From a virus, in IMG/VR virus record IMGVR_UViG_3300025132_008118: a DNA stretch of 64,000 nucleotides; one strand, 5' to 3'. A program made the translations under genes and the position numbers. The notes under the pieces are model-generated. The model worked only from the letters and a program-made list of their open reading frames with translations, was not told the DNA's origin and searched no databases. Below are positions 7,482-42,773 of the stretch, piece after piece (the stretch's first letter is position 1; every line of letters begins with the position of its first letter).

Positions 7482-8311
7482 TTATAATCAGTTAAATCAG
7501 GCTTCTTTAATTTATATTCTATTAACTTCTTTTTCCATGTTGGTGAAAGAGTTGTCTTATCTGTATATTTAACATGTTCCTCTGGGACTTCAAATGGTGC
7601 GATTTCGTTAAAATAACCACAATATTTACATAAATCTTCAAATTGGTTATATACCGCATCATCATTAATGTCTTTAATATTTTTAATACCAGTATCCATA
7701 CCGAATACTTTATCAATAGCAGCACCGGTTGTGCATGGATAATAACCATGTTTTGTTAAACAAGGTTGAGCACATTGACATTTTTTATGAACACGGGCAT
7801 ATTCTTTATTTTTATTTGCCTTATAATTAATATTATCTATCGGTGCAATATTAATAGGATAAAATAATTGATTATTATCTTTTTTATGGGTGCTTAGGAG
7901 ATTAATTAAATGGGATGTATGTTGTAAATTTATTAATTTATTTTTTTGTTTACCGTTAGTTAATACTACTAAACCCTCTTTAATATAATTCTCTATATGT
8001 TCATCAAAATAAGTAGTATGGTTATAATCACCTTTATATATTACACCATTCTTAAAAAATGCTTTATTTAACATTCTAATTATTTGTTGTATATTAGGGT
8101 GGAGTAAAGGTTCACCACCGGTAAGAACTATAATTTCCCATTTTATATTATTTTCTAAAGATTCATTTATAAAACTAGTTATTTGTTCAACTGACATAGT
8201 ACTATCCATTTTTGGAGCTTGTCTAACCATAGCATCGCAGTTATGGCATGCCATATTACATTTAGCAGTAATAGACAATTCTATGTATTTTTTATCCCAA
8301 CTTGGTATCAT
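7478..8311 (-). CDS. Radical SAM protein
   Basis: CNMACHNC (CxxxCxxC), TGGEPLLHP, LTNG; C-terminal Cys cluster (twitch-like). Confidence 0.9.
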   Translation of the reverse strand: MIPSWDKKYIELSITAKCNMACHNCDAMVRQAPKMDSTMSVEQITSFINESLENNIKWEIIVLTGGEPLLHPNIQQIIRMLNKAFFKNGVIYKGDYNHTTYFDEHIENYIKEGLVVLTNGKQKNKLINLQHTSHLINLLSTHKKDNNQLFYPINIAPIDNINYKANKNKEYARVHKKCQCAQPCLTKHGYYPCTTGAAIDKVFGMDTGIKNIKDINDDAVYNQFEDLCKYCGYFNEIAPFEVPEEHVKYTDKTTLSPTWKKKLIEYKLKKPDLTDYK

Positions 8312-32940: not shown

Positions 32941-33170
32941 CATGTATGTCTCCTCAAGAAATATTTGATTATAAATTAGGGTGGAAATCTTATTCATTTT
33001 CTGTCCCGTTTCATTCAGATTGGGAAATGGAATATAGAGATTACTGTAAAGAAAATTTTAATAAATGGCAGTGGGATATGTATAAATGGTCAAACGTTTA
33101 CGAGCATACGATGTTATTTGAAAAAATAAAAGATGCTGATAAGTTTAAAGAATTTATTGATAAACGATAA
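32928..33170 (+). CDS. Hypothetical aromatic-rich protein (start possibly at 32946)
   Basis: Open frame; the first ATG lies inside the hairpin stem. Confidence 0.65.
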   Translation: MRGFPCMSPQEIFDYKLGWKSYSFSVPFHSDWEMEYRDYCKENFNKWQWDMYKWSNVYEHTMLFEKIKDADKFKEFIDKR

Positions 33171-33184
33171 ACATATACTATAAT
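33157..33184 (+). promoter_or_regulatory. Sigma70-type promoter TTGATA-N16-TATAAT
   Basis: 8 nt before the uvsX ATG. Confidence 0.65.
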
Positions 33185-33192
33185 AGTAGTAT

Positions 33193-34293
33193 ATGAGTAA
33201 AGAAATTGATGATATTTTATCTGTAATTGATAAGTCTAATCCATATGCATCTTTCTTAAATGAAAGTGCTATTAGTAATGTAGATGGTTGGTTAGATACT
33301 GGATCGATGGTACTAAATGGTATTGTATCTGGTTCGTTGTTTGGTGGTATACCGAAAAATAGAATGACCTTATTGGCTGGTCCAAGTATGACTGGTAAGA
33401 GTTTTATTTTACAAAAGATTCTAGCTAATGCTCAAAAAGAAGGTTTGATACCAGTTATATTTGATAGTGAAAATGCTATTGATAGAGACGGTGCTGCTGC
33501 TTTAGGATTAGATGTTAGCAAAGTAAAATATGTACCTGTATTTAGTATTGAAGAATGCCGTAATACAATTTATGATTTTTTAACAAAAGTTAAAGAAAAC
33601 GGTCAAGAAGGTAAATTTATTATTGCAATTGATTCATTAGGTAATATGGAAAGCCAATTACAGATCAATCGTCAGGAAAAAGGTAATGTAAGTGCTGATA
33701 TGGGTAGTAGAGCTAAAGCTATGAAATCTTTATTACGTACTTTAACTCAATTATCTGGTTTAACTAAAACTACTATTTTAGCTACTAATCATATCTATGA
33801 GGACCCGGCTGCATTATTTCCTTCGTTAGTTAAAGCAATGCCAGGTGGTACTGCTACTGTTTACTTACCTTCAGTTACTATTCAATTAGCTCGTAAGCCA
33901 GTTAAAGAAGATAAGAATACAGATGGTAAGTTAGCTGTAGGTCAGAAGAATTATTCAGGGGTTATTCTAAGAGCATTGACAGTTAAGAATAGATTCGTTA
34001 AGCAATATTTACAAGGTGAAATGTATCTATCTTTTGATAAAGGTCTAAACAAATATTATGGTTTATTGGATCTTGCAGTAGGGTTAGGAGCAGTGATACA
34101 AACTGGTTCTACTTATACATTACCTGATGGTAAGAAACTTGGCTATTATAGTAAATGGAAAGACGATACAGAATTATGGGATAATACTATTATACCTGTT
34201 GTAGAAGAAAAAATTAAACAAGAATGGAAGTACAGTAATAAATCAGAAGAAGATGAAATTATACCAGACGAAGTAAACGATGAAGAAGAATAA
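33193..34293 (+). CDS. uvsX: RecA-like recombinase UvsX
   Basis: DTGS, AGPSMTGKS, FDSE, IDSLG, TNHIY, KNRF. Confidence 0.95.
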   Translation: MSKEIDDILSVIDKSNPYASFLNESAISNVDGWLDTGSMVLNGIVSGSLFGGIPKNRMTLLAGPSMTGKSFILQKILANAQKEGLIPVIFDSENAIDRDGAAALGLDVSKVKYVPVFSIEECRNTIYDFLTKVKENGQEGKFIIAIDSLGNMESQLQINRQEKGNVSADMGSRAKAMKSLLRTLTQLSGLTKTTILATNHIYEDPAALFPSLVKAMPGGTATVYLPSVTIQLARKPVKEDKNTDGKLAVGQKNYSGVILRALTVKNRFVKQYLQGEMYLSFDKGLNKYYGLLDLAVGLGAVIQTGSTYTLPDGKKLGYYSKWKDDTELWDNTIIPVVEEKIKQEWKYSNKSEEDEIIPDEVNDEEE

Positions 34294-35026
34294 AATAGTT
34301 ATAACCTTATCAGGGGGAATGGATTCATCTGTTCTACTTTATAAAGCAGCTGAGCAATATAATGAAGTACATACTGTAACATTTAATTATGGTCAACGTC
34401 ATGATAAAGAATTAGAAGCAGCAGAAAAACAATTAGTTAACGCTATGCATGATTTTCCTAATGTTACATTTACTAATAAATTATTAGACGTTACTTATAT
34501 AAAGGATATAGCTGATACATCTTCTCTAACTAATAATAAAATTGATACACCTGATGTAAAAGATGTAATGGGTGAAGCTCAACCTAAATCATATGTACCA
34601 TTCCGTAATTTAATGTTTTTAAGCATATTACTATCATATGCAGAAAAAATGGAAGCTGATGAAGTATGGTACGGTGCAGCAGAAGCTGATAGTCTTGCTG
34701 GTTATTGGGATGGATCTATACAATTTGTCGATAAAATAAATCAAATTTGCTTATTAAACCGTGAAAAGGATATAAGAGTTAGAGCTCCTTTACTTGAAAT
34801 GAGTAAAAAGGAAATTATTTTAAATGGTGTTGAGCTTGGTGTAAATTTTGCTGATACTTACACATGTTATTCTGGTGAATATCCATGTGATGCAAATAGC
34901 GCAAGTAGTGCACTTAGATTAAAAGGGTTTGTAGACGCAGGATTGCAAGATCCATTACGTTATAAACAGCAAGATAAGTTAGATTTAGTTTATACAGATA
35001 ATAATTGTAAAGCTATAATATATTAA
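34280..35026 (+). CDS. queC: QueC-family (7-cyano-7-deazaguanine synthase-like) PP-loop ATPase
   Basis: LSGGMDS, FNYGQRH, YVPFRN, APLL; C-terminal Cys motif degenerate. Confidence 0.88.
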   Translation: MKKNKIVITLSGGMDSSVLLYKAAEQYNEVHTVTFNYGQRHDKELEAAEKQLVNAMHDFPNVTFTNKLLDVTYIKDIADTSSLTNNKIDTPDVKDVMGEAQPKSYVPFRNLMFLSILLSYAEKMEADEVWYGAAEADSLAGYWDGSIQFVDKINQICLLNREKDIRVRAPLLEMSKKEIILNGVELGVNFADTYTCYSGEYPCDANSASSALRLKGFVDAGLQDPLRYKQQDKLDLVYTDNNCKAIIY

Positions 35027-36546
35027 TAACCGTGTCTATGCATTCTCTCTCGTGAATGAGCATTTTGCATTTTTTGTCTGTACTGATTAAGTAGATAGTT
35101 ATTAATATCTTGTTGGGACATTGCAACTTGCTCTTCTTCTTCATCTTTAGGTAAAGCCTTTTTCATTAAATGACCACCCGCAGCCGCTGCAGCTCCACCC
35201 GCAGCCGCTAATCCTAACACTGGTAATATATTATCTTCAGCAGGTTCATCTTCTTCTTCTGATTTCTTTTTTGCATGATTGTATTCAAAAGTATCGCCAT
35301 CGCCGACATCGTCGTAATGATCTGCAACTGCTCTTGCATGAGCTTGACCTGCTCTTTCCTTCTCTTTCTTCATTATTTTATCAGCTCTTGCTTCTCCATA
35401 TTCATAAGTTTCTTCATCGCCGCTCATTGGGCAATTTTCAGCTTCTTCTCTTCTACCTTCTTCTTTATTCATTGCAGCTTTAATGGCCTTATCTCTAGAT
35501 CCCATATATTCATCTGTTGATGATTCTAGCTCACCATCACCATCGTGATCCTTTTTAGCCGTTTCTTCACCTTCTATTCTTCTTCCATAACGATCAAACT
35601 TACCTTCTTCACCTTCAGGGAAATCAGCAACTAATTTTTCTCTATCACCCATTTCTATTTCACCACCAAATTTATCAACTTTTTCTGTTTCACTTGGCTT
35701 TACAATTACAACTGATACTACATCATCTTGTTTTATATCATCTAAGTTAAGTTTAGTACCTTTAAATTTGTTTAGGGTAACTCTATATTTTAAACCATCA
35801 CTAATAGTAGTATATAAATCGTTATCTCCCACTCCACCTTCTGATTTGAACACTTTATCTCCTCCTAAATTTAATTGAAGAGTTTCAAAACCTGTATCAC
35901 CCTTCTTAAGACCTTCTTTTGCAGCTCCTCTTTCTCTTGTTGTAATTTTTACATCTGATCTACCTGCCAAAGGTTTTGAAACTTGTGAAACTACATTTAT
36001 TGCATTTTGAATATCATCATTTGATAAATTTTCTAAGTCTAATTCGGGATTTTCTTTTTGTAAAAATCTAATTACTTTAGTTGCAAAATATCTAGGTGTC
36101 ATTGTACCTTTTAAATCACGGATATCTTCCATTCCCATTAGTTTGGCTCTAATAGGGTCTGTTATTTTCTTACCCCTTGCTTCTTCTATTAAATCATAAT
36201 CTATGCCTTCCAGATAACCTTCAGTTGAAATTTTTACTTGTGCAAATGCTTTTCGAATATCGTCGTCAGATGCATTTGAAATATCTAATTGAGGATTTTT
36301 ATCAATAATCTGCTGAGCATAAATTTTTGGCGATACTCTGCCCATTTGAGATGCAATATCCAAACTACCTAATCTTGCTGCTAATTGTGCCACCGGGTGC
36401 TTTATTGTTTTCCATTTTGCAGCAAGCATGCTTTTATCAAAAGGGTTAGTGGTTAATTCTTCGATATAATCGTAGTCAATACCATCCATATAGCTTGATG
36501 TGTTTTCGTTAATAATTTTTTTATTGCTCCAGTTATGTAAACTCAT
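35023..36546 (-). CDS. Large acidic late protein with an internal duplication, putative internal head polyprotein
   Basis: TAAATA at 36552..36557; repeated GIDYD.IEE units; KKDHDGDGELES...DEYMGSRDKAIK motif. Confidence 0.65.
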   Translation of the reverse strand: MSLHNWSNKKIINENTSSYMDGIDYDYIEELTTNPFDKSMLAAKWKTIKHPVAQLAARLGSLDIASQMGRVSPKIYAQQIIDKNPQLDISNASDDDIRKAFAQVKISTEGYLEGIDYDLIEEARGKKITDPIRAKLMGMEDIRDLKGTMTPRYFATKVIRFLQKENPELDLENLSNDDIQNAINVVSQVSKPLAGRSDVKITTRERGAAKEGLKKGDTGFETLQLNLGGDKVFKSEGGVGDNDLYTTISDGLKYRVTLNKFKGTKLNLDDIKQDDVVSVVIVKPSETEKVDKFGGEIEMGDREKLVADFPEGEEGKFDRYGRRIEGEETAKKDHDGDGELESSTDEYMGSRDKAIKAAMNKEEGRREEAENCPMSGDEETYEYGEARADKIMKKEKERAGQAHARAVADHYDDVGDGDTFEYNHAKKKSEEEDEPAEDNILPVLGLAAAGGAAAAAGGHLMKKALPKDEEEEQVAMSQQDINNYLLNQYRQKMQNAHSRERMHRHGY

Positions 36547-36557
36547 ATTATTATTTA

Positions 36558-36585
36558 TTGATTTTTTTTAATTTTATACTATAAT
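36558..36585 (+). promoter_or_regulatory. Sigma70-type promoter TTGATT-N16-TATAAT abutting a divergent late promoter
   Basis: 8 nt before ATG 36594; tattta at 36552..36557. Confidence 0.65.
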
Positions 36586-36593
36586 ATAGTTAT

Positions 36594-37265
36594 ATGTGTG
36601 GTATTTATTGCAGTAATGATTTGTCTACCTTTGAAATTTTACAGGAGGCTAATAAAAAGCGTGGTAATTTTTCGACTGGTATATTTTACTGTTATAATAA
36701 AGCTAATTATAATATACTCAAAGAAAAAGGTAATATAAACTGGAATAAAACTAAAATACCGCACCAAGAAGGCCATATATACTTGGGTCATAACCAGGCT
36801 CCTACCGAAACAGGTAGAGGTTGGCAAGAGGAAACGTCTCATCCATTTTGGGTAGGTGATTGGATAGTAGCTCATAATGGTGTTTTAACTAATTCTAATG
36901 AATTAATTGATGAATATATACCAATGCATGATAACCCTGTAGATAGTAGTATAATACCAGCATTATTAGATGAATTTGAATATACCCATGGTCCTTGTGA
37001 AGACGCTGAAACTGAAGTACAAAATATATTATACACTATAGAAAAACTTAAAGGTACATTTGCTTTATGGATAGTTAATATTAAAACTATGAATGTATAT
37101 ATAGCAAGACAAGGTAGCACATTATATTACAAAGACGCTAATATATCATCAATTAAGGGTAACGGTTATAAAGAAGTATTACAGGGTGTACTTTATAACT
37201 TTTCATATGAAGGCTTAACTGAAATAGACGGGTTTGTATATGACTCACCATTTTTAACATTATGA
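36594..37265 (+). CDS. Stand-alone class II (Ntn) glutamine amidotransferase
   Basis: MCGI (N-terminal Cys nucleophile), LGH, AHNG, DS, KGTFAL. Confidence 0.88.
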   Translation: MCGIYCSNDLSTFEILQEANKKRGNFSTGIFYCYNKANYNILKEKGNINWNKTKIPHQEGHIYLGHNQAPTETGRGWQEETSHPFWVGDWIVAHNGVLTNSNELIDEYIPMHDNPVDSSIIPALLDEFEYTHGPCEDAETEVQNILYTIEKLKGTFALWIVNIKTMNVYIARQGSTLYYKDANISSIKGNGYKEVLQGVLYNFSYEGLTEIDGFVYDSPFLTL

Positions 37266-37735
37266 ATATAAATTACGTAACAATTAACCAATTAACTGAA
37301 ATAGATAAATTAAGATTTATTAAATTTATTTACGATAATACAGACTCCTTTATTTTAAATACATTTGGCCATACATGGTCAGGTAGAGATTGGTGGTCTG
37401 AGCATCCAATAGAGGTATGTACTGATGATACGGGTAGGGTACTTGGATTGCATGCATATACTGTGAATACTAAAGCAGAAGATACATTAAAAACATATTA
37501 TATAGTTACATCTAAATATAATAGGGGTAAAGGTATTGCTAAATTGTTAATTAAAAATGCTTTATATAAACATAAAGATGATATTAAATTTTATTACGTT
37601 AATTCAGATGTAAAAAGTGAAGGAGCTGTCTTTTATAAAAAATGGTTCGGAGACAGTTTTACCCTTGAAGATAATGATTTTTCTTCGCAAGATATGATTT
37701 TTAAGGAACCGGTTTATAATATTATAGATGGGTAA
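37262..37735 (+). CDS. GNAT-family acetyltransferase
   Basis: Acetyl-CoA motif A: VTSKYNRGKGIAKLL; FYKKW. Confidence 0.75.
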   Translation: MNINYVTINQLTEIDKLRFIKFIYDNTDSFILNTFGHTWSGRDWWSEHPIEVCTDDTGRVLGLHAYTVNTKAEDTLKTYYIVTSKYNRGKGIAKLLIKNALYKHKDDIKFYYVNSDVKSEGAVFYKKWFGDSFTLEDNDFSSQDMIFKEPVYNIIDG

Positions 37736-38066
37736 TTTAAAAACTACAGGTAAGCCGCGTCAATTTGAAACCGGTGCTCAACGAGATAACGGAGATGGTA
37801 AACTTCGAATGAGTTTAGTACCTCATAAGGCCTTAAATGGGGTAATGATGAGGTATTTACAAGGGGCTGATACATACGGGGAAAATAATTGGAAGAAAGG
37901 TATGAAACACTCAGTTTTGTACGATAGTACTATGAGACATCTCATGCAAGATTTTACTGGTGATGATAGTGAAGACCATTTAGGAGCTGCTTTATGGAAT
38001 ATTATGGGTATGATCTGGAATAGAGACCATAAACCTGAAATGGATGATAGAAAAGAATATGAGTAA
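37728..38066 (+). CDS. dATP/dGTP diphosphohydrolase-like protein (DUF5664-type)
   Basis: FETGAQRD, K.R.SLVP, YG.NNWKKG, RHL, EDHLGAALWN. Confidence 0.85.
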   Translation: MGNLKTTGKPRQFETGAQRDNGDGKLRMSLVPHKALNGVMMRYLQGADTYGENNWKKGMKHSVLYDSTMRHLMQDFTGDDSEDHLGAALWNIMGMIWNRDHKPEMDDRKEYE

Positions 38067-39153
38067 AGTATTTGTTTCCGGTTGTTATGATATTATTCAT
38101 GCAGGTCATATAGAATTTTTTAAAGAAGCTCTTAAACAAGGAGATAAACTGGTAGTGTGTATACCATCTGATGAAGTATTATATCAGTATAAAAAAAGAC
38201 GACCTAGTATACCAATCGAGCATAAGATAGAAATTTTAAATAATATATCTTTTATTGATGAGGTGGTAATTGGTGGTAATTTAGATAAAAATGGTTTAAA
38301 TTTTAAAGACATTATAATAAAAATATCACCAGACGTTTTAGTTGTTACGTCAGATGATAAGTTTGAAAAAAGCAAAAGAAAATTTTGTACAAAGCACAAT
38401 ATAGGATACGTTAAACTAGAAAAAACTCCTCCAAAGTTTGACCCAATAAGTACATCATCTATTCTTAATAATATTAAAACACCAAATGAAGCTCCCTTAC
38501 GGGTTGACTTAGCTGGTGGTTGGTTAGATGTACCTGAACATGCAAGAGATGATGGGTTTATAGTAAATTGCGCAATATCACCAACTGTATCTTTACATAA
38601 TTGGCCGTATGAAACCCAATCTGGACTCGGAGGTAGTGGAGCATGGGCATTATTGAATGGTAAAGATGGGGTACAAAGTGAATTAGATTTAGGTGTTGGG
38701 TGGCAAGACCCAGCTGTAATAAAAGAAACTGGTTTATGTGTTTGGAAAAGTGGTGAAAAACCTCATCTTATCTTAAAACGAAACGGGGATATATTAAAAG
38801 GTAAAATGGCATTACATTACACTGGAATTAGTCATGATACTCCGTCATATGTTAAAAATAATCGTGATTATAATTTGTTAGCTAGGTCTAGTCGTTTAGC
38901 ATACACAGGGGTACAAAATAATAATTTAGAGCAAATATGTGCTGGTATTAATATGAATTATGAAGTACAATTAAAAGAAGGTATGAATGCATCACCAGTT
39001 ATTGAAAATACAATAGCAACCAAATATTGCGGTGGTGGTTTTGGTGGATATATTTTATCTGTATTTTATAATAAAATAGATCGTGATAAATTTATTAATA
39101 ATTATCAACATTTTGGAGCAATTAAAATAGAACCATACTTAAATGAAATATAA
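38044..39153 (+). CDS. Fusion of an HxGH cytidylyltransferase-like domain and a GHMP sugar kinase
   Basis: SGCYDIIHAGH; PLRVDLAGGWLD, SGLGGS, GGGFGG. Confidence 0.85.
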   Translation: MIEKNMSKVFVSGCYDIIHAGHIEFFKEALKQGDKLVVCIPSDEVLYQYKKRRPSIPIEHKIEILNNISFIDEVVIGGNLDKNGLNFKDIIIKISPDVLVVTSDDKFEKSKRKFCTKHNIGYVKLEKTPPKFDPISTSSILNNIKTPNEAPLRVDLAGGWLDVPEHARDDGFIVNCAISPTVSLHNWPYETQSGLGGSGAWALLNGKDGVQSELDLGVGWQDPAVIKETGLCVWKSGEKPHLILKRNGDILKGKMALHYTGISHDTPSYVKNNRDYNLLARSSRLAYTGVQNNNLEQICAGINMNYEVQLKEGMNASPVIENTIATKYCGGGFGGYILSVFYNKIDRDKFINNYQHFGAIKIEPYLNEI

Positions 39154-39799
39154 AATTTATACAACTACTAAAGGTGAGAAAGAAGATACTTTATTATATA
39201 AATCTCTTAATAAAAAATATTACGATATACCAGTACATTATGAAGAAAAAAATACTAAAAGTTTGCAAAGCTGTTATAACAGCTTTTTGGAGGACGCTCG
39301 TAATAATAACGTTGATATCTGCGTATTTGTCCATGATGACGTTTTTATTAATTGCGGGGATTTGTTGCATAGGTTGGACAATTATGGAAAAATGTATACA
39401 GTTTTTGGTCTCGCAGGGGCCAAGGCATGCAAGGTTAAAGAACCTGCTTTATGGCATCTTATGTCCGAAAGAAAAGACCAAAGAGGAAATGTTGCTCACG
39501 GATATCCTGACCAATATCAGTATACTTCGTTTGGCCCTATTCCAGGCCGTGTTTTGGTTATTGATGGTGTCTTTATCGGCATTAATATACGAAATTTACC
39601 AACTAATGTAAAGTTTGATGAATCATACCCATCTAAGTTTCATTACTATGATTTAGATTTTAGTCTAGAATGCAATAAAAATAGTGTTAAAATAGGGGTT
39701 GTGGATATACCAATAATACATTCAAGTCCAGGTCTAACAAACCCTAACGAAGAGTTCTATAAAGGACAGGAATACTTTATTAAAAAATGGAAACGGTAG
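39143..39799 (+). CDS. GT-A (GT2-like) glycosyltransferase
   Basis: SCYN, VFVHDDV, VIDGVF, FHYYDLD. Confidence 0.8.
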   Translation: MKYKIYTTTKGEKEDTLLYKSLNKKYYDIPVHYEEKNTKSLQSCYNSFLEDARNNNVDICVFVHDDVFINCGDLLHRLDNYGKMYTVFGLAGAKACKVKEPALWHLMSERKDQRGNVAHGYPDQYQYTSFGPIPGRVLVIDGVFIGINIRNLPTNVKFDESYPSKFHYYDLDFSLECNKNSVKIGVVDIPIIHSSPGLTNPNEEFYKGQEYFIKKWKR

Positions 39800-40224
39800 T
39801 ATTAGTTACAGGGGGATTTGATCCTTTACATTCAGGGCACTTAGCTTATTTTAGAGCAGCCAAGAAGCTAGGCGATAAGCTTATTGTTGGTATTAATTCC
39901 GATTCGTGGTTAGAGCGTAAAAAAGGAAAAAACTTTTTACCTCTTAGTGAAAGGTACGAGATAGTATCCGCGCTAAAGTATGTTGATAATTGTATACTAT
40001 TTAACGATGAGGATGATACTGCAATTGAAGCCATACGTAATGTTATAATGCTGTACCCTTTTGATAGGATTATATTTGCTAACGGAGGTGATAGAGTTGA
40101 GGGAAATACCCCTGAGGAAGATGCCAAGTTCTTTCCGGAAAAAGATATTATCTTTCAATATGGAGTTGGAGGGCTTGATAAAAAAAATAGTAGTAGTTGG
40201 ATATTGCAAAGATGGGAAAAATAA
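39787..40224 (+). CDS. HxGH cytidylyltransferase-like nucleotidyltransferase
   Basis: TGGFDPLHSGH, VGINSD, ANGGDR, KKNSSS. Confidence 0.9.
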   Translation: METVVLVTGGFDPLHSGHLAYFRAAKKLGDKLIVGINSDSWLERKKGKNFLPLSERYEIVSALKYVDNCILFNDEDDTAIEAIRNVIMLYPFDRIIFANGGDRVEGNTPEEDAKFFPEKDIIFQYGVGGLDKKNSSSWILQRWEK

Positions 40225-40523
40225 CACAAACGAGATGGGGTAGTTACAATGTTTTATTAGAAGGTAAAGATTATAAAATTAAAACTTTACATATTGAACC
40301 AGGCAAATCATTAAGTGATCAAAGACATTTTCATAGAAATGAACATTGGTTTATTTTAGAAGGAGAATTATCTCTTAACGGTGATATATATCACAAAAAT
40401 GATTTTATTAATATACCAGTTGAAAAGTGGCATTTACCAGCTAATATTAGTAATAGTATGTGTGTTATTTGCGAAATACAATATGGTGATAAATGCATAG
40501 AAGAAGATATTGAAAGAAAATAA
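40197..40523 (+). CDS. Cupin, mannose-6-phosphate isomerase C-terminal type
   Basis: RWGSY, PGKSLS.QRH.HRNEHW, EIQYG.CIEEDIER. Confidence 0.85.
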   Translation: MDIAKMGKITQTRWGSYNVLLEGKDYKIKTLHIEPGKSLSDQRHFHRNEHWFILEGELSLNGDIYHKNDFINIPVEKWHLPANISNSMCVICEIQYGDKCIEEDIERK

Positions 40524-41863
40524 TGGAAGATATAGGTAGATTAAATTTAGATTATTATGAGCAGGTTATAGTTTATAAGAGCTTAACTAACGAAAGTTAT
40601 CTAACTCAAATTATAGATCATATAAAGCCGGATTACTTTAATGATAAAAATATTAAGACAGTCTTTAATTTAATAACTAATTTCTATATTAAGAGGCAGA
40701 GTATACCTACTATTACTGAATTAAAGTCATACTTAATTAATGATGAACTTAAAGAAAGTTTTAGATCAGTTGTAAAGAATTTTCCTAATATTGATAAAAA
40801 CTTTAATGATGAAGAATTAACTTCTAATACTGAACGTTTCTTAAAAGAAAGGGCAATATATAATACAATGTTATCAGTTGCTGAAGATGTTAGTAAAGGT
40901 GAAGTTAATACGAGTTTTATTTTAGATAGCTTTGAAAAAAGCTGTAACGTTAATTTAAAAGAAGAAATAGGTTTAGATTTATTCGAAAATATTGATAAGG
41001 TTGTAGATGATTTGAATATAGATCAACCTACCATATCTTCAGGTTGGAAATGGTTAGATGATAAAATAGATGGAGGTTTCTTAGAAAATGGTAGATCGTT
41101 ATATGTATTTGCTGGTGAATCTAACGTTGGTAAATCTATATTTTTAGGTAATATAGCTTGTAATATAGCTTCAAGAGGTAAGACGGTTTTAGTTATTAGT
41201 CTTGAAATGTCAGAGATGATATACGCAAGAAGATTATCATCTAATATAACTAGAATACCGATGAGAGAACTAAAAGGAGCTGGTCAATCTTTATCAGCTC
41301 AAATAAAAAGTTATAATAGTGGTAAACCTAATAGTAAAATTTTAATTAAAGAGTTTCCACCTAGTACTGTTACGCCGCAGAATATACAAGGTTATATTAC
41401 TGAATTAAAAAATAGAGGTATTAAAGTAGATGCAGTGGTTCTTGATTATTTGAATCTATTAAAAAGTCCTCTCGGTGATAATTCTTATGAAAGAGTTAAG
41501 CATGTTGCTGAGGGTATACGAGCATTAAGTTATGTTTTTGAATGCCCGTTTATTTCTGCAACTCAGTTAAATAGGTCAGGTTACGATGAAGAGAATCCTG
41601 GTTTAGATACCATATCAGAATCTATTGGAATGGCTGCTACTGCTGATTGTATTTTTAGTATATTTCAAGATGATGAAGATAAGGAGTTAGGTATAGTTAA
41701 GATGGGTATGATGAAAAATAGATATGGTGCTAATTATGGCTATACAGCATTAAGGTTAAATTATGACACGTTAACTATTTCAGAGGATGAAACGTTAAAC
41801 GTTGACGATGAAGGTAGCGAAATGTCTGATTTAACTAATACTCTCAACCTGTTGAGTAATTAA
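40523..41863 (+). CDS. 41: Replicative DnaB-like helicase gp41
   Basis: AGESNVGKS, SLEM, DYLNL, ATQLNR, ESIG, MKNRYG. Confidence 0.95.
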   Translation: MEDIGRLNLDYYEQVIVYKSLTNESYLTQIIDHIKPDYFNDKNIKTVFNLITNFYIKRQSIPTITELKSYLINDELKESFRSVVKNFPNIDKNFNDEELTSNTERFLKERAIYNTMLSVAEDVSKGEVNTSFILDSFEKSCNVNLKEEIGLDLFENIDKVVDDLNIDQPTISSGWKWLDDKIDGGFLENGRSLYVFAGESNVGKSIFLGNIACNIASRGKTVLVISLEMSEMIYARRLSSNITRIPMRELKGAGQSLSAQIKSYNSGKPNSKILIKEFPPSTVTPQNIQGYITELKNRGIKVDAVVLDYLNLLKSPLGDNSYERVKHVAEGIRALSYVFECPFISATQLNRSGYDEENPGLDTISESIGMAATADCIFSIFQDDEDKELGIVKMGMMKNRYGANYGYTALRLNYDTLTISEDETLNVDDEGSEMSDLTNTLNLLSN

Positions 41864-41885: not shown

Positions 41886-42773
41886 ATGCCTAAGATCCAT
41901 ATAATTACAGATGCAGATCTAGACGGAGCTGGTTCATACTTATGTTTAAAGCAAGCTTATAATGATGTAACGTTAACGTATTCAGTTACCACAGAAAAAA
42001 AGTTTATTAGTGATGTAGCTTATTTTAAATTTGAAGATTATGATTTAGTAATTATTAGTGATTTAAATCTAAAAGAAAGTGAAATTAGACTTTGTGATTT
42101 AAAAAACGTTATTGTAATTGATCATCACGCTGAGCATATAGAACTAATTGATAATTATAAAAATGCTAAACCAATAGTAAAAGACTACCCATCATGTACT
42201 AAGTTAATATATGATACCTTCAAGTTAGAAAATAAGCTAAATAAAAATCAAAAATTATTGGTTAAACTAATAGATGATTACGATAGTTATAAATTAAAAT
42301 TACCGTTTAGTAAACCATTAAATCAAGTATTTTGGTCTTATACAGGGGATAGAGTTAATAAATTTGAAAATGATTTTAAAGATGGTTTTTTTGGTTTTAA
42401 TCAATTTCAAAAAAATGCTTTAAAAATTGTTGAAAATAAAATTAATAACTTTTTTAAAGATGAGACCATACACAGAGGTGATATAAAAATTGGTAATACT
42501 GTTTATAATGTAGCAGGTGTTATGGTATCATTTAGCCCGAATGAAATAGCTGAACGTATTATAGATCAATATGGAGTAGATTTCGTTATAATGGTAAACC
42601 TGGAAGGTAAAAGTGTTTATATGAGACGGAGCAATAATTGCCCGCTGAATATGGGTAGATTAGCCTTTAAACTTATGAACGGCGGCGGTCATCATGATGC
42701 TGCTGGTGGAACTTTAAACGATTCGATAATTAATATTACTAAATTACTTAAACCAATTATTAATGAAAAATAA
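41886..42773 (+). CDS. DHH/DHHA1 phosphoesterase
   Basis: DADLDG, IDHH, GGGH..AAG. Confidence 0.88.
   Translation: MPKIHIITDADLDGAGSYLCLKQAYNDVTLTYSVTTEKKFISDVAYFKFEDYDLVIISDLNLKESEIRLCDLKNVIVIDHHAEHIELIDNYKNAKPIVKDYPSCTKLIYDTFKLENKLNKNQKLLVKLIDDYDSYKLKLPFSKPLNQVFWSYTGDRVNKFENDFKDGFFGFNQFQKNALKIVENKINNFFKDETIHRGDIKIGNTVYNVAGVMVSFSPNEIAERIIDQYGVDFVIMVNLEGKSVYMRRSNNCPLNMGRLAFKLMNGGGHHDAAGGTLNDSIINITKLLKPIINEK

Follow-up and report, generated by a model that had tools for sequence, protein, structure and literature searches.

The complete replacement of guanine in phage DNA by a 7-deazaguanine is marked by DpdA3, and in the published examples all guanines are replaced (PMC10516641). One of these phages, Flavobacterium phage immuto_2-6A (immuto), contains fdPreQ1 according to mass spectrometry, with a reported [M+H]+ of 324, and DpdN is the predicted formyltransferase acting on preQ1 (7-aminomethyl-7-deazaguanine) (PMC10516641). 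Published efforts to make DpdA3 function in E. coli were unsuccessful. In Enterobacteria phage 9g, a class II glutaminase domain (Gat) and a QueC PP-loop domain serve a deazaguanine DNA pathway as one fused protein, and dG+ is the product (Hutinet et al. 2019, PMC6884629). Vibrio phage 2.275.O (MG592671) has separate, adjoining genes for QueC and an Ntn glutaminase together with QueF, in the order QueF-YhhQ-QueC-Gat-FolE; the role of its Gat is predicted only. Among the dNTP-pool enzymes of phages with 2-aminoadenine (Z) genomes (DUF5664, MazZ/DUF550, DatZ), the stand-alone DUF5664 protein of Arthrobacter phage Wayne converts dATP, dUTP and dGTP to the monophosphates (2026, PMC12884076). Here we analyse a locus in the IMG/VR virus record IMGVR_UViG_3300025132_008118, a stretch of 64,000 nucleotides that we call the window. 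Between uvsX (33193-34293) and gp41 (40523-41863) it carries QueC, a class II glutamine amidotransferase (Gat), a GNAT-fold N-acyltransferase (GNAT) and a DUF5664 protein, as an earlier note on this DNA had reported.

The novelty best supported at this locus, judged by sequence, is a GNAT that would stand in for DpdN and thereby predicts an acetylated preQ1 base within a known type of system. Scans of IMG/VR loci returned 27 related loci with the Gat query and 62 with a GNAT alignment. In all scanned loci the gene order is uvsX-QueC-[variable minus-strand genes]-Gat-GNAT-(DUF5664)-(sugar genes)-GT218-gp41, where GT218 denotes a PF13712 glycosyltransferase, and this order persists down to 59% identity in uvsX and 41% in GNAT. 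In three loci (L014, L017 and L112) the slot between Gat and DUF5664 is occupied by a formyltransferase of 177-178 aa instead of GNAT. Across the entire protein, its identity to immuto DpdN is 42-43% (E-values 2e-44 and 4e-45), and the window GNAT has no similarity to the DpdN of L014. L013, which has GNAT, and L014 share 93% nucleotide identity through Gat, none from the exact Gat stop, and 94% from the exact DUF5664 start; L020 and L017 show the same exact break and return of similarity. The flanks of the swapped gene are 90-94% identical between sister phages. A quick maximum-likelihood tree built on Gat places the three DpdN loci at scattered positions in a GNAT subclade of 20 rows (support 97), which implies at least three GNAT/DpdN exchanges. 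The modifier slot is filled in all 39 non-redundant in-clade rows (36 GNAT, 3 DpdN) and in none of the six outgroup rows. DpdN orthologues occur in 33 further viral loci, and there the gene is without exception part of a DpdA3-DpdN-kinase-QueF(-QueC) cassette with no glycosyltransferase nearby.

When unrelated acyl-transferring enzymes replace each other precisely and repeatedly, the simplest explanation is a common acceptor, and from the gene content this would most simply be the aminomethyl nitrogen of preQ1. GNAT, a candidate stand-in for DpdN from outside the DpdN family, would then probably acylate the preQ1 amine and yield 7-(acetylaminomethyl)-7-deazaguanine, a base not yet described. 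Our literature search found no paper that names this compound or combines dPreQ1 with an acetyltransferase. An acylated deazapurine had been suggested in the earlier note, and the cassette swap makes it the best-supported of the new points raised there. A precedent for an acetylated aminomethyl group on a phage DNA base is 5-acetylaminomethyl-2'-deoxyuridine of Pseudomonas phage Ab18 (cited in bioRxiv 10.1101/2025.10.29.685425), which is, however, a pyrimidine from the thymidine hypermodification route.

The window GNAT scores below the Pfam cut-offs (PF13508, 23.8 versus 27; PF00583, 20.4 versus 20.7), but many of its cluster relatives do have these matches. Its AlphaFold2 model (pLDDT 90.6, pTM 0.86) gives at least 500 GNAT matches in the PDB at E ≤ 0.001 in Foldseek, and the top ones (TM 0.65-0.71) are GNAT amine acetyltransferases. 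Motif A, which binds the pyrophosphate of CoA (R/Q-x-x-G-x-G/A), reads R88-G-K-G91-I-A93; G91 is shared by all of 28 homologues, and conservation of R88 and A93 among them is at least 90%. Both the modelled fold and the RGKGIA motif accord with an amine N-acetyltransferase. Neither GNAT nor GT218 has a homologue in 50,697 isolate phage records.

No close isolate phage was found by megablast of the region against isolate phages, and the protein relatives stem from Tara and other marine sets. A homologue search of the window finds no dpdA, folE, queD or queE, in agreement with the earlier note, and no queF. At 8069-8266 (minus strand) there is a weak likeness to phage 9g QueE (30% over 67 aa), which probably reflects the shared radical SAM core only. 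The rest of the pathway was examined in the genomes of relatives. One of them, G001, is 88% complete at 185 kb (one contig); its uvsX shows 98.6% and its Gat 90% identity to the window genes. It encodes FolE2, QueD, a QueE homologue, QueC and a bimodular QueF, the last in a cassette with an AAA_28 kinase and a 268-aa protein with 51% identity to the DpdA3 annotated in immuto and 49% to its homologue in Campylobacter phage CP220. DpdA3, QueF and one copy of QueC occur in G006, a complete genome of 209 kb with terminal repeats. Searching with the G001 protein detected DpdA3 in G001, G006, G008 and G011-G016. The PF01702 profile revealed no canonical TGT in five relatives, DpdA3 being too divergent for that model. 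We also collected a distant set of 80 loci with Gat homologues 27-35% identical to the window protein, the closer subgroup of the distant homologues. All six large contigs of this QueC-Gat-GT218 group carry DpdA3, and GNAT is missing from all 80 loci. The complete genome G012 has QueC-Gat-GT218 and DpdA3 without QueF. Among near-complete genomes, GNAT occurs only with QueF (both in G001 and G006, QueF only in G011, neither in G012).

The FolE2, QueD, QueE, QueF, DpdA3 and kinase genes of the relatives lead us to suggest that the window block is part of a DpdA3-type 7-deazaguanine DNA system. The 7-deazaguanine connection drawn in the earlier note thus holds, since close relatives carry DpdA3 and the preQ0/preQ1 genes elsewhere in the genome, but the separate new pathway proposed there does not: the genes probably form one half of a known DpdA3/QueF-type system. 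We give about an even chance to the following reading, which builds on sequence and on analogy with published phages: the block would tailor the base, as one half of a DpdA3-type system in which a 7-deazaguanine takes the place of guanine, with Gat aiding QueC, GNAT acylating preQ1 and DUF5664 helping. Two neighbourhoods may be recorded here. The QueD/FolE2 region of G001 (L039, 60000-75000) also encodes spermidine synthase, a CsgG-like protein, PhoH and a DXD glycosyltransferase, and DpdA3 of G012 (L233, 211502-214942) has a family B DNA polymerase fragment and ThyX as its neighbours on either side instead of a kinase and QueF. We also considered that a GNAT-type genome might hold a second DpdN elsewhere, but the other PF00551 protein of G001 (L044:1192-1884) is of the Fmt/ArnA/sugar-N-formyltransferase type; it suggests a separate amino-sugar chemistry in these phages.

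Of the described systems, that of immuto (2023, PMC10516641) is compared first. Besides the DpdA3 similarity, an AAA_28 kinase and a bimodular QueF adjoin DpdA3 in both, both have the zinc-poor QueC subtype described below, with a common SASS motif, an NTP pyrophosphohydrolase lies near the genes, and some sister phages of the window have a true DpdN orthologue. In the window, by contrast, an unrelated GNAT replaces DpdN, and the modifier has its place beside QueC and Gat instead of in the DpdA3 cassette. The window clade also has the stand-alone Gat and the PF13712 glycosyltransferase that immuto lacks, FolE2 in place of FolE, and DUF5664 in place of PRA-PH. Vibrio phage 2.275.O shares the separate QueC and Gat genes (its Gat is 29% identical) but has no homologue of GNAT, DUF5664 or GT218.

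The window QueC is a clear member of its family (PF06508, E-value 5.9e-53, 179.9 bits versus a cut-off of 22; NCBIfam equivalog TIGR00364, 165.5 versus 150.3). Its PP-loop LSGGMDSS occupies residues 10-17, and S11, G12, G13, D15 and S16 are invariant in 19 relatives. Of the four canonical cysteines of the zinc site only two are present (TCYS..PCDANSASS in the window, at 34859-34900, versus TCYN..GCGECPAC in 3bl5). The window subclade keeps two of these cysteines, deeper members of the clade keep one, and immuto (L109) none; all four are kept in QueC of the Vibrio phage, CP220, 9g and the distant QueC-Gat-GT218 loci without GNAT. The Cys-losing proteins of the window subclade, the deeper clade and immuto have the motif D-x-x-S/T-A/P-S-S in common. 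Because of this loss we file the window protein as a QueC-family enzyme of a zinc-poor subtype, the four-Cys site being a trait of the solved canonical QueC structures that lies outside the curated model cut-off. Since immuto DNA carries a preQ1 derivative, loss of the zinc cysteines seems not to abolish QueC function.

The N-terminus of Gat, MCGIY, places the catalytic Cys directly after the initiator Met. In three distant relatives (L071:81, L088:9167 and L093:9327) ATT, not ATG, precedes this Cys; they have a strong Shine-Dalgarno sequence 8-11 nt upstream and no promoter-like site, which looks like a rare ATT start. Cys2, R23-G24, H94-N95-G96 and D117 do not vary among 23 relatives and 34 distant homologues, and given the matches of Gat to the GlmS and PurF N-terminal domains in profile searches we infer that they are the GlmS/PurF catalytic residues. 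The protein reaches 27.1 bits with GATase_6 (cut-off 27), and profile searches reveal neither an acceptor (synthase) domain nor a sugar-isomerase (SIS) domain; a glutaminase domain on its own implies that the partner acts in trans. QueC and Gat are strongly linked: in 70 of the 80 distant loci QueC directly precedes Gat, and fused Gat-QueC forms exist (PHROG 10428; phage 9g, and also Crenarchaeota). Complex prediction weakly supports a QueC-Gat association, with a score of 0.57 versus 0.00 for the best control. Agreement between the runs is at least 93% of contacts, with a partner pLDDT of at least 87. Of 80 solved complexes, 58 reached this mark, as did 2 of 110 mismatched pairs; at scores of at most 0.60 the numbers are just 7 of the 80 and both of the passing mismatches, counts that are only rough here as own alignments were used. 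Likeness to solved enzymes that combine Gat with a PP-loop domain, such as AsnB, may contribute to this score.

The role that we assign to Gat, which is most likely to feed ammonia to QueC, competes with another one. Gat and QueC could be a split archaeosine-type synthase that turns 7-carboxy-7-deazaguanine (CDG) or preQ0 into G+, or stops at 7-amido-7-deazaguanine (ADG), so that the DNA has dG+ or dADG. Together with DpdA, the fused 9g protein leads to dG+ in E. coli, also when queC is deleted (PMC6884629), and the product in G012 cannot be preQ1, as this genome has QueC-Gat-GT218 and DpdA3 and no QueF. In the window clade, however, QueF is present and the DpdN/GNAT slot lies beside Gat; QueF, DpdN and GNAT all need preQ0 to be released, the last two acting on preQ1, and ammonia supply is favoured over G+ there for this reason. 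Nor is Gat a recent split of a fusion of the 9g type, a possibility that we rejected. It matches the 9g Gat domain marginally (E-value 7e-5 over 81 residues only), and a profile search of 1.84 billion representatives gives 407 relatives at E ≤ 1e-10; stand-alone proteins of 205-240 aa (~220) make up almost all of the 150 nearest, and no fusion of ~470 aa is among these. In the window the two proteins are separate open reading frames (ORFs) 1.5 kb apart, on separate transcripts, and the system has DpdA3 instead of DpdA1, with QueF and an amine-acylating enzyme arguing for preQ1 chemistry. Both the link to Gat-QueC fusions and the amidino (archaeosine-type) product put forward in the earlier note are therefore doubtful, the latter being unlikely since QueF and DpdN/GNAT require free preQ0 and preQ1. 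A minor but real chance is what we leave to the split synthase.

The most constant partner of QueC and Gat is GT218, which is part of the same conserved module. All of its atlas clusters (score 0.99) are PF13712 and viral. It follows Gat or the modifier in every evaluable clade locus, and it follows Gat in 76 of the 80 distant loci, from which GNAT, DpdN and DUF5664 are all missing. The genes around it vary with the lineage: nucleotidyltransferases in the window, a GDP-mannose 4,6-dehydratase and an epimerase in L014, an epimerase/dehydratase in L150. Among relatives of the window the larger nucleotidyltransferase gene (38044-39153) occurs in some only, and the gene at 39787-40224 is present or missing; the small cupin co-occurs with the latter. 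The GHMP-like assignment of the C-terminal half of the larger protein relies on a GGGFGGY motif in the sequence only. In distant loci, a DUF366 protein is encoded directly 3' of GT218 (L150:7347-7919, L217:7045-7626).

These genes raise the possibility of a glycan pathway, in which Gat, GNAT or the formyltransferase, GT218 and the sugar-nucleotide genes make an N-acylated amino sugar for an acceptor such as a virion protein, the host envelope or DNA, with GNAT acting on the sugar amine. The constancy of GT218 and the varied sugar-nucleotide genes clustered around it speak for such a pathway, and N-formyl and N-acetyl groups are alternative decorations of amino sugars. However, the slot formyltransferase is a full-length orthologue of DpdN, which elsewhere lies between DpdA3 and kinase-QueF away from any glycosyltransferase, and the distant QueC-Gat-GT218 loci indicate that GT218 does not need GNAT. 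The lack of an SIS domain in Gat and the separate Fmt/ArnA-type formyltransferase of G001 point the same way, and we consider the glycan pathway unlikely. A third possibility combines the two chemistries: these phages might attach a sugar to the 7-deazaguanine derivative in DNA, perhaps together with the N-acyl group. It is suggested by the fact that QueC, Gat and GT218 stay together in very distant phages, with or without QueF, while the sugar genes vary. None of the papers listed in our literature search appears, by its title and abstract opening, to deal with a glycosylated deazaguanine in DNA, and we regard the idea as distinctly unlikely.

DUF5664 is recognised over nearly its whole length (PF18909, E-value 7.5e-20, 71.2 bits versus 27, profile positions 2-99 of 99) and is ~31-36% identical to Arthrobacter phage homologues. 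By analogy with the protein of Wayne, the window DUF5664 is a probable dNTP pyrophosphohydrolase; PF18909 is a stand-alone small protein in both, but in the window the setting is one of deazaguanine, not PurZ, and the protein is not universally kept in its own clade. Its model has three long helices (pLDDT 79.7). Foldseek gives nothing significant, and a sequence search of solved structures gives nothing. The VIA matches (best 2p06_B, Z 7.0, rmsd 3.7 over 81 residues; PRA-PH 1yvw, Z 3.9) are in the chance range for helical bundles; weak as it is, the best one would be compatible with the all-alpha NTP pyrophosphatases. The 112-aa window protein might have been a mere non-catalytic N-terminal domain of the Z-phage dATP/dGTP hydrolase, a reading that we dropped in view of the activity of stand-alone DUF5664 (PMC12884076). 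That same published activity, on dATP, dUTP and dGTP, supports the dNTP hydrolase named in the earlier note. Depletion as an obligatory step fails, though: DUF5664 is present in 42 of the 61 evaluable GNAT loci and missing from 19, about one-third, as well as from the complete G006, so that we rejected obligatory dGTP clearance and treat the protein as accessory. Published DpdA3 phages have other hydrolases beside the deazaguanine genes: PRA-PH in immuto (L040:11273-11797), MazG in phiST (L042:6597-7184) and an HD protein in CP220 (L041:6868-7899, with the kinase). None of the three has PF18909, and a P-loop kinase adjoins DpdA3 in each. Hydrolases of different folds and a kinase next to DpdA3 hint at pool clearing or other work on the nucleotide pool.

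GNAT and DUF5664 might instead be unrelated passengers of the locus, GNAT being a general acetyltransferase for polyamines or host proteins and DUF5664 a house-cleaning dNTPase, with nothing but an inherited gene order in common. All GNAT loci belong to one phage lineage, though a deep one. SpeG-type polyamine acetyltransferases are among the GNAT fold matches, relative G001 encodes spermidine synthase, and DUF5664 proteins are common in phages with canonical DNA. On the other hand, repeated base-precise replacement of GNAT by DpdN between near-identical flanks is hard to explain with unrelated acceptors, and the 4-nt and 8-nt start/stop overlaps of GNAT with Gat and DUF5664 suggest translational coupling. 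Such a collection of passengers appears quite improbable to us. Lastly, a mere role in tRNA, with the genes raising queuosine precursors for host or phage tRNA, can appeal to QueC, QueF and a YhhQ-type transporter in Vibrio phages with barely modified DNA (~0.1% of G modified in nt-1; PMC6884629), yet it is very improbable indeed, as the relatives carry the marker of complete guanine replacement (PMC10516641), the five relatives searched have no canonical TGT, and DpdN and GNAT have no role in queuosine synthesis.

If the block is indeed the tailoring half of a DpdA3-type system, its steps, drawn from sequence, context and published relatives, would be as follows. FolE2, QueD and QueE, encoded elsewhere in the genome, would provide CDG, and the window QueC would convert it to preQ0 (7-cyano-7-deazaguanine). 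Gat would pass glutamine-derived ammonia to QueC, a division of labour as in asparagine synthetase B and the fused Gat-QueC. QueF, also encoded elsewhere, would reduce preQ0 to preQ1, and GNAT would place an acyl group, most simply acetyl from acetyl-CoA, on the aminomethyl nitrogen of preQ1 to form 7-(acetylaminomethyl)-7-deazaguanine; acylation of the free base, of the nucleotide or of DNA would all be compatible with the data. DUF5664, as an optional helper, might convert probably dGTP, possibly dATP or dUTP, to the monophosphate and thus reduce competition from the canonical nucleotide. Finally, DpdA3 and its neighbouring kinase, again encoded elsewhere, would insert the base into DNA.

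Several points weigh against this scheme. DpdA3, QueF, QueD and QueE are verified in relatives only, and the window QueC is without two of the four canonical zinc ligands. Phages of the immuto type make preQ1 derivatives without Gat, so Gat is dispensable for preQ0 synthesis as such, and the fused Gat-QueC of phage 9g yields dG+, not preQ0 (PMC6884629). For DpdN, too, the formylase role is a prediction (PMC10516641). The exchange of GNAT and DpdN would also fit an amino-sugar acceptor, given that N-formyl and N-acetyl sugars are known alternatives; a glycosyltransferase and sugar-nucleotide genes lie in the same operon. As for DUF5664, the Wayne protein prefers dATP tenfold over dGTP (PMC12884076), and searches of the complete G006 reveal no DUF5664, MazG or PRA-PH.

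The features of the block, called from the ORF listing and profile searches, are collected in the table. The replication genes of the window are T4-like, and its G+C content is 25-34% (AT-rich). The four genes of the earlier note are there, but they are not contiguous, a minus-strand ORF of 507 aa splitting QueC from Gat, and they are not the whole block: the genes from the first nucleotidyltransferase to the cupin, left out of that note, are presumably co-transcribed and part of this conserved block as well. Overlapping or abutting genes all the way from Gat to gp41 suggest a single transcript. The promoter-like sites before uvsX and Gat are the two best of the region and of the same class, although the overall number of sites is not above chance; the hexamers and spacing of the site before Gat are kept upstream of Gat in most relatives.

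Table. Features of the block between uvsX and gp41 and the promoter-like sites associated with it.
Feature	Coordinates	Strand	Remarks
Promoter-like site TTGATA-N16-TATAAT	33157..33184	+	Just 5' of uvsX; would drive uvsX and QueC; top score in the scan, 11/12
QueC	34280..35026	+	Start overlaps uvsX end by 14 nt
507-aa ORF, no family match	35023..36546	-	Between QueC and Gat
Promoter-like site TTGATT-N16-TATAAT	36558..36585	+	Ends 8 nt 5' of the Gat start; would drive Gat to gp41
Stand-alone class II (Ntn) glutamine amidotransferase, Gat	36594..37265	+	223 aa, glutaminase domain only
GNAT-fold N-acyltransferase	37262..37735	+	4-nt overlap with Gat
DUF5664 (PF18909; dGTP_diPhyd_N) small helical protein	37728..38066	+	112 aa; 8-nt overlap with GNAT
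Nucleotidyltransferase (RfaE domain II-like) with GHMP-kinase-like C-terminal half	38044..39153	+	PF01467 1.3e-13; rfaE_dom_II 4e-19
GT-A type glycosyltransferase (PF13712), GT218	39143..39799	+	PF13712 1.5e-10
Second small nucleotidyltransferase	39787..40224	+	145 aa; PF01467 4.1e-16; rfaE_dom_II 2.7e-19
Small cupin-like protein	40197..40523	+	Weak PHROG match phrog_7851, 4.4e-5

The 507-aa product is acidic, of low complexity and repeat-containing. Pfam and PHROG searches gave no match, the atlas model has a pLDDT of 0.47, and its neighbours are viral hypothetical proteins only. Relatives have a counterpart of 31-78% identity, or one or two other unknown genes in its place, and the ORF is missing from distant loci, where QueC and Gat are directly adjacent. 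It is probably a variable insert outside the pathway, with a disordered product. On the other side of the block, a DHH phosphoesterase gene (41886-42773, plus strand) lies 3' of gp41, in the same place in nearly all relatives.

QueC thus has two unexplained constant partners, a stand-alone glutaminase and a glycosyltransferase, and if the latter does act on the base, a glycosylated deazapurine would constitute a so far unreported class of DNA modification. Every DpdA3 lineage examined has some NTP (pyro)phosphohydrolase, of differing folds, which bears on whether guanine is replaced via the nucleotide pool or in finished DNA only. Eight 7-deazaguanine derivatives are known in phage DNA; N-acetyl-preQ1 would be the ninth, with the responsible gene named. 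Each new derivative alters which restriction enzymes, glycosylases and CRISPR nucleases act on the DNA. The exchange of formyl and acetyl modifiers as a cassette between nearly identical wild marine phages is what one would expect if the phages were in an arms race with enzymes recognising the modified base.

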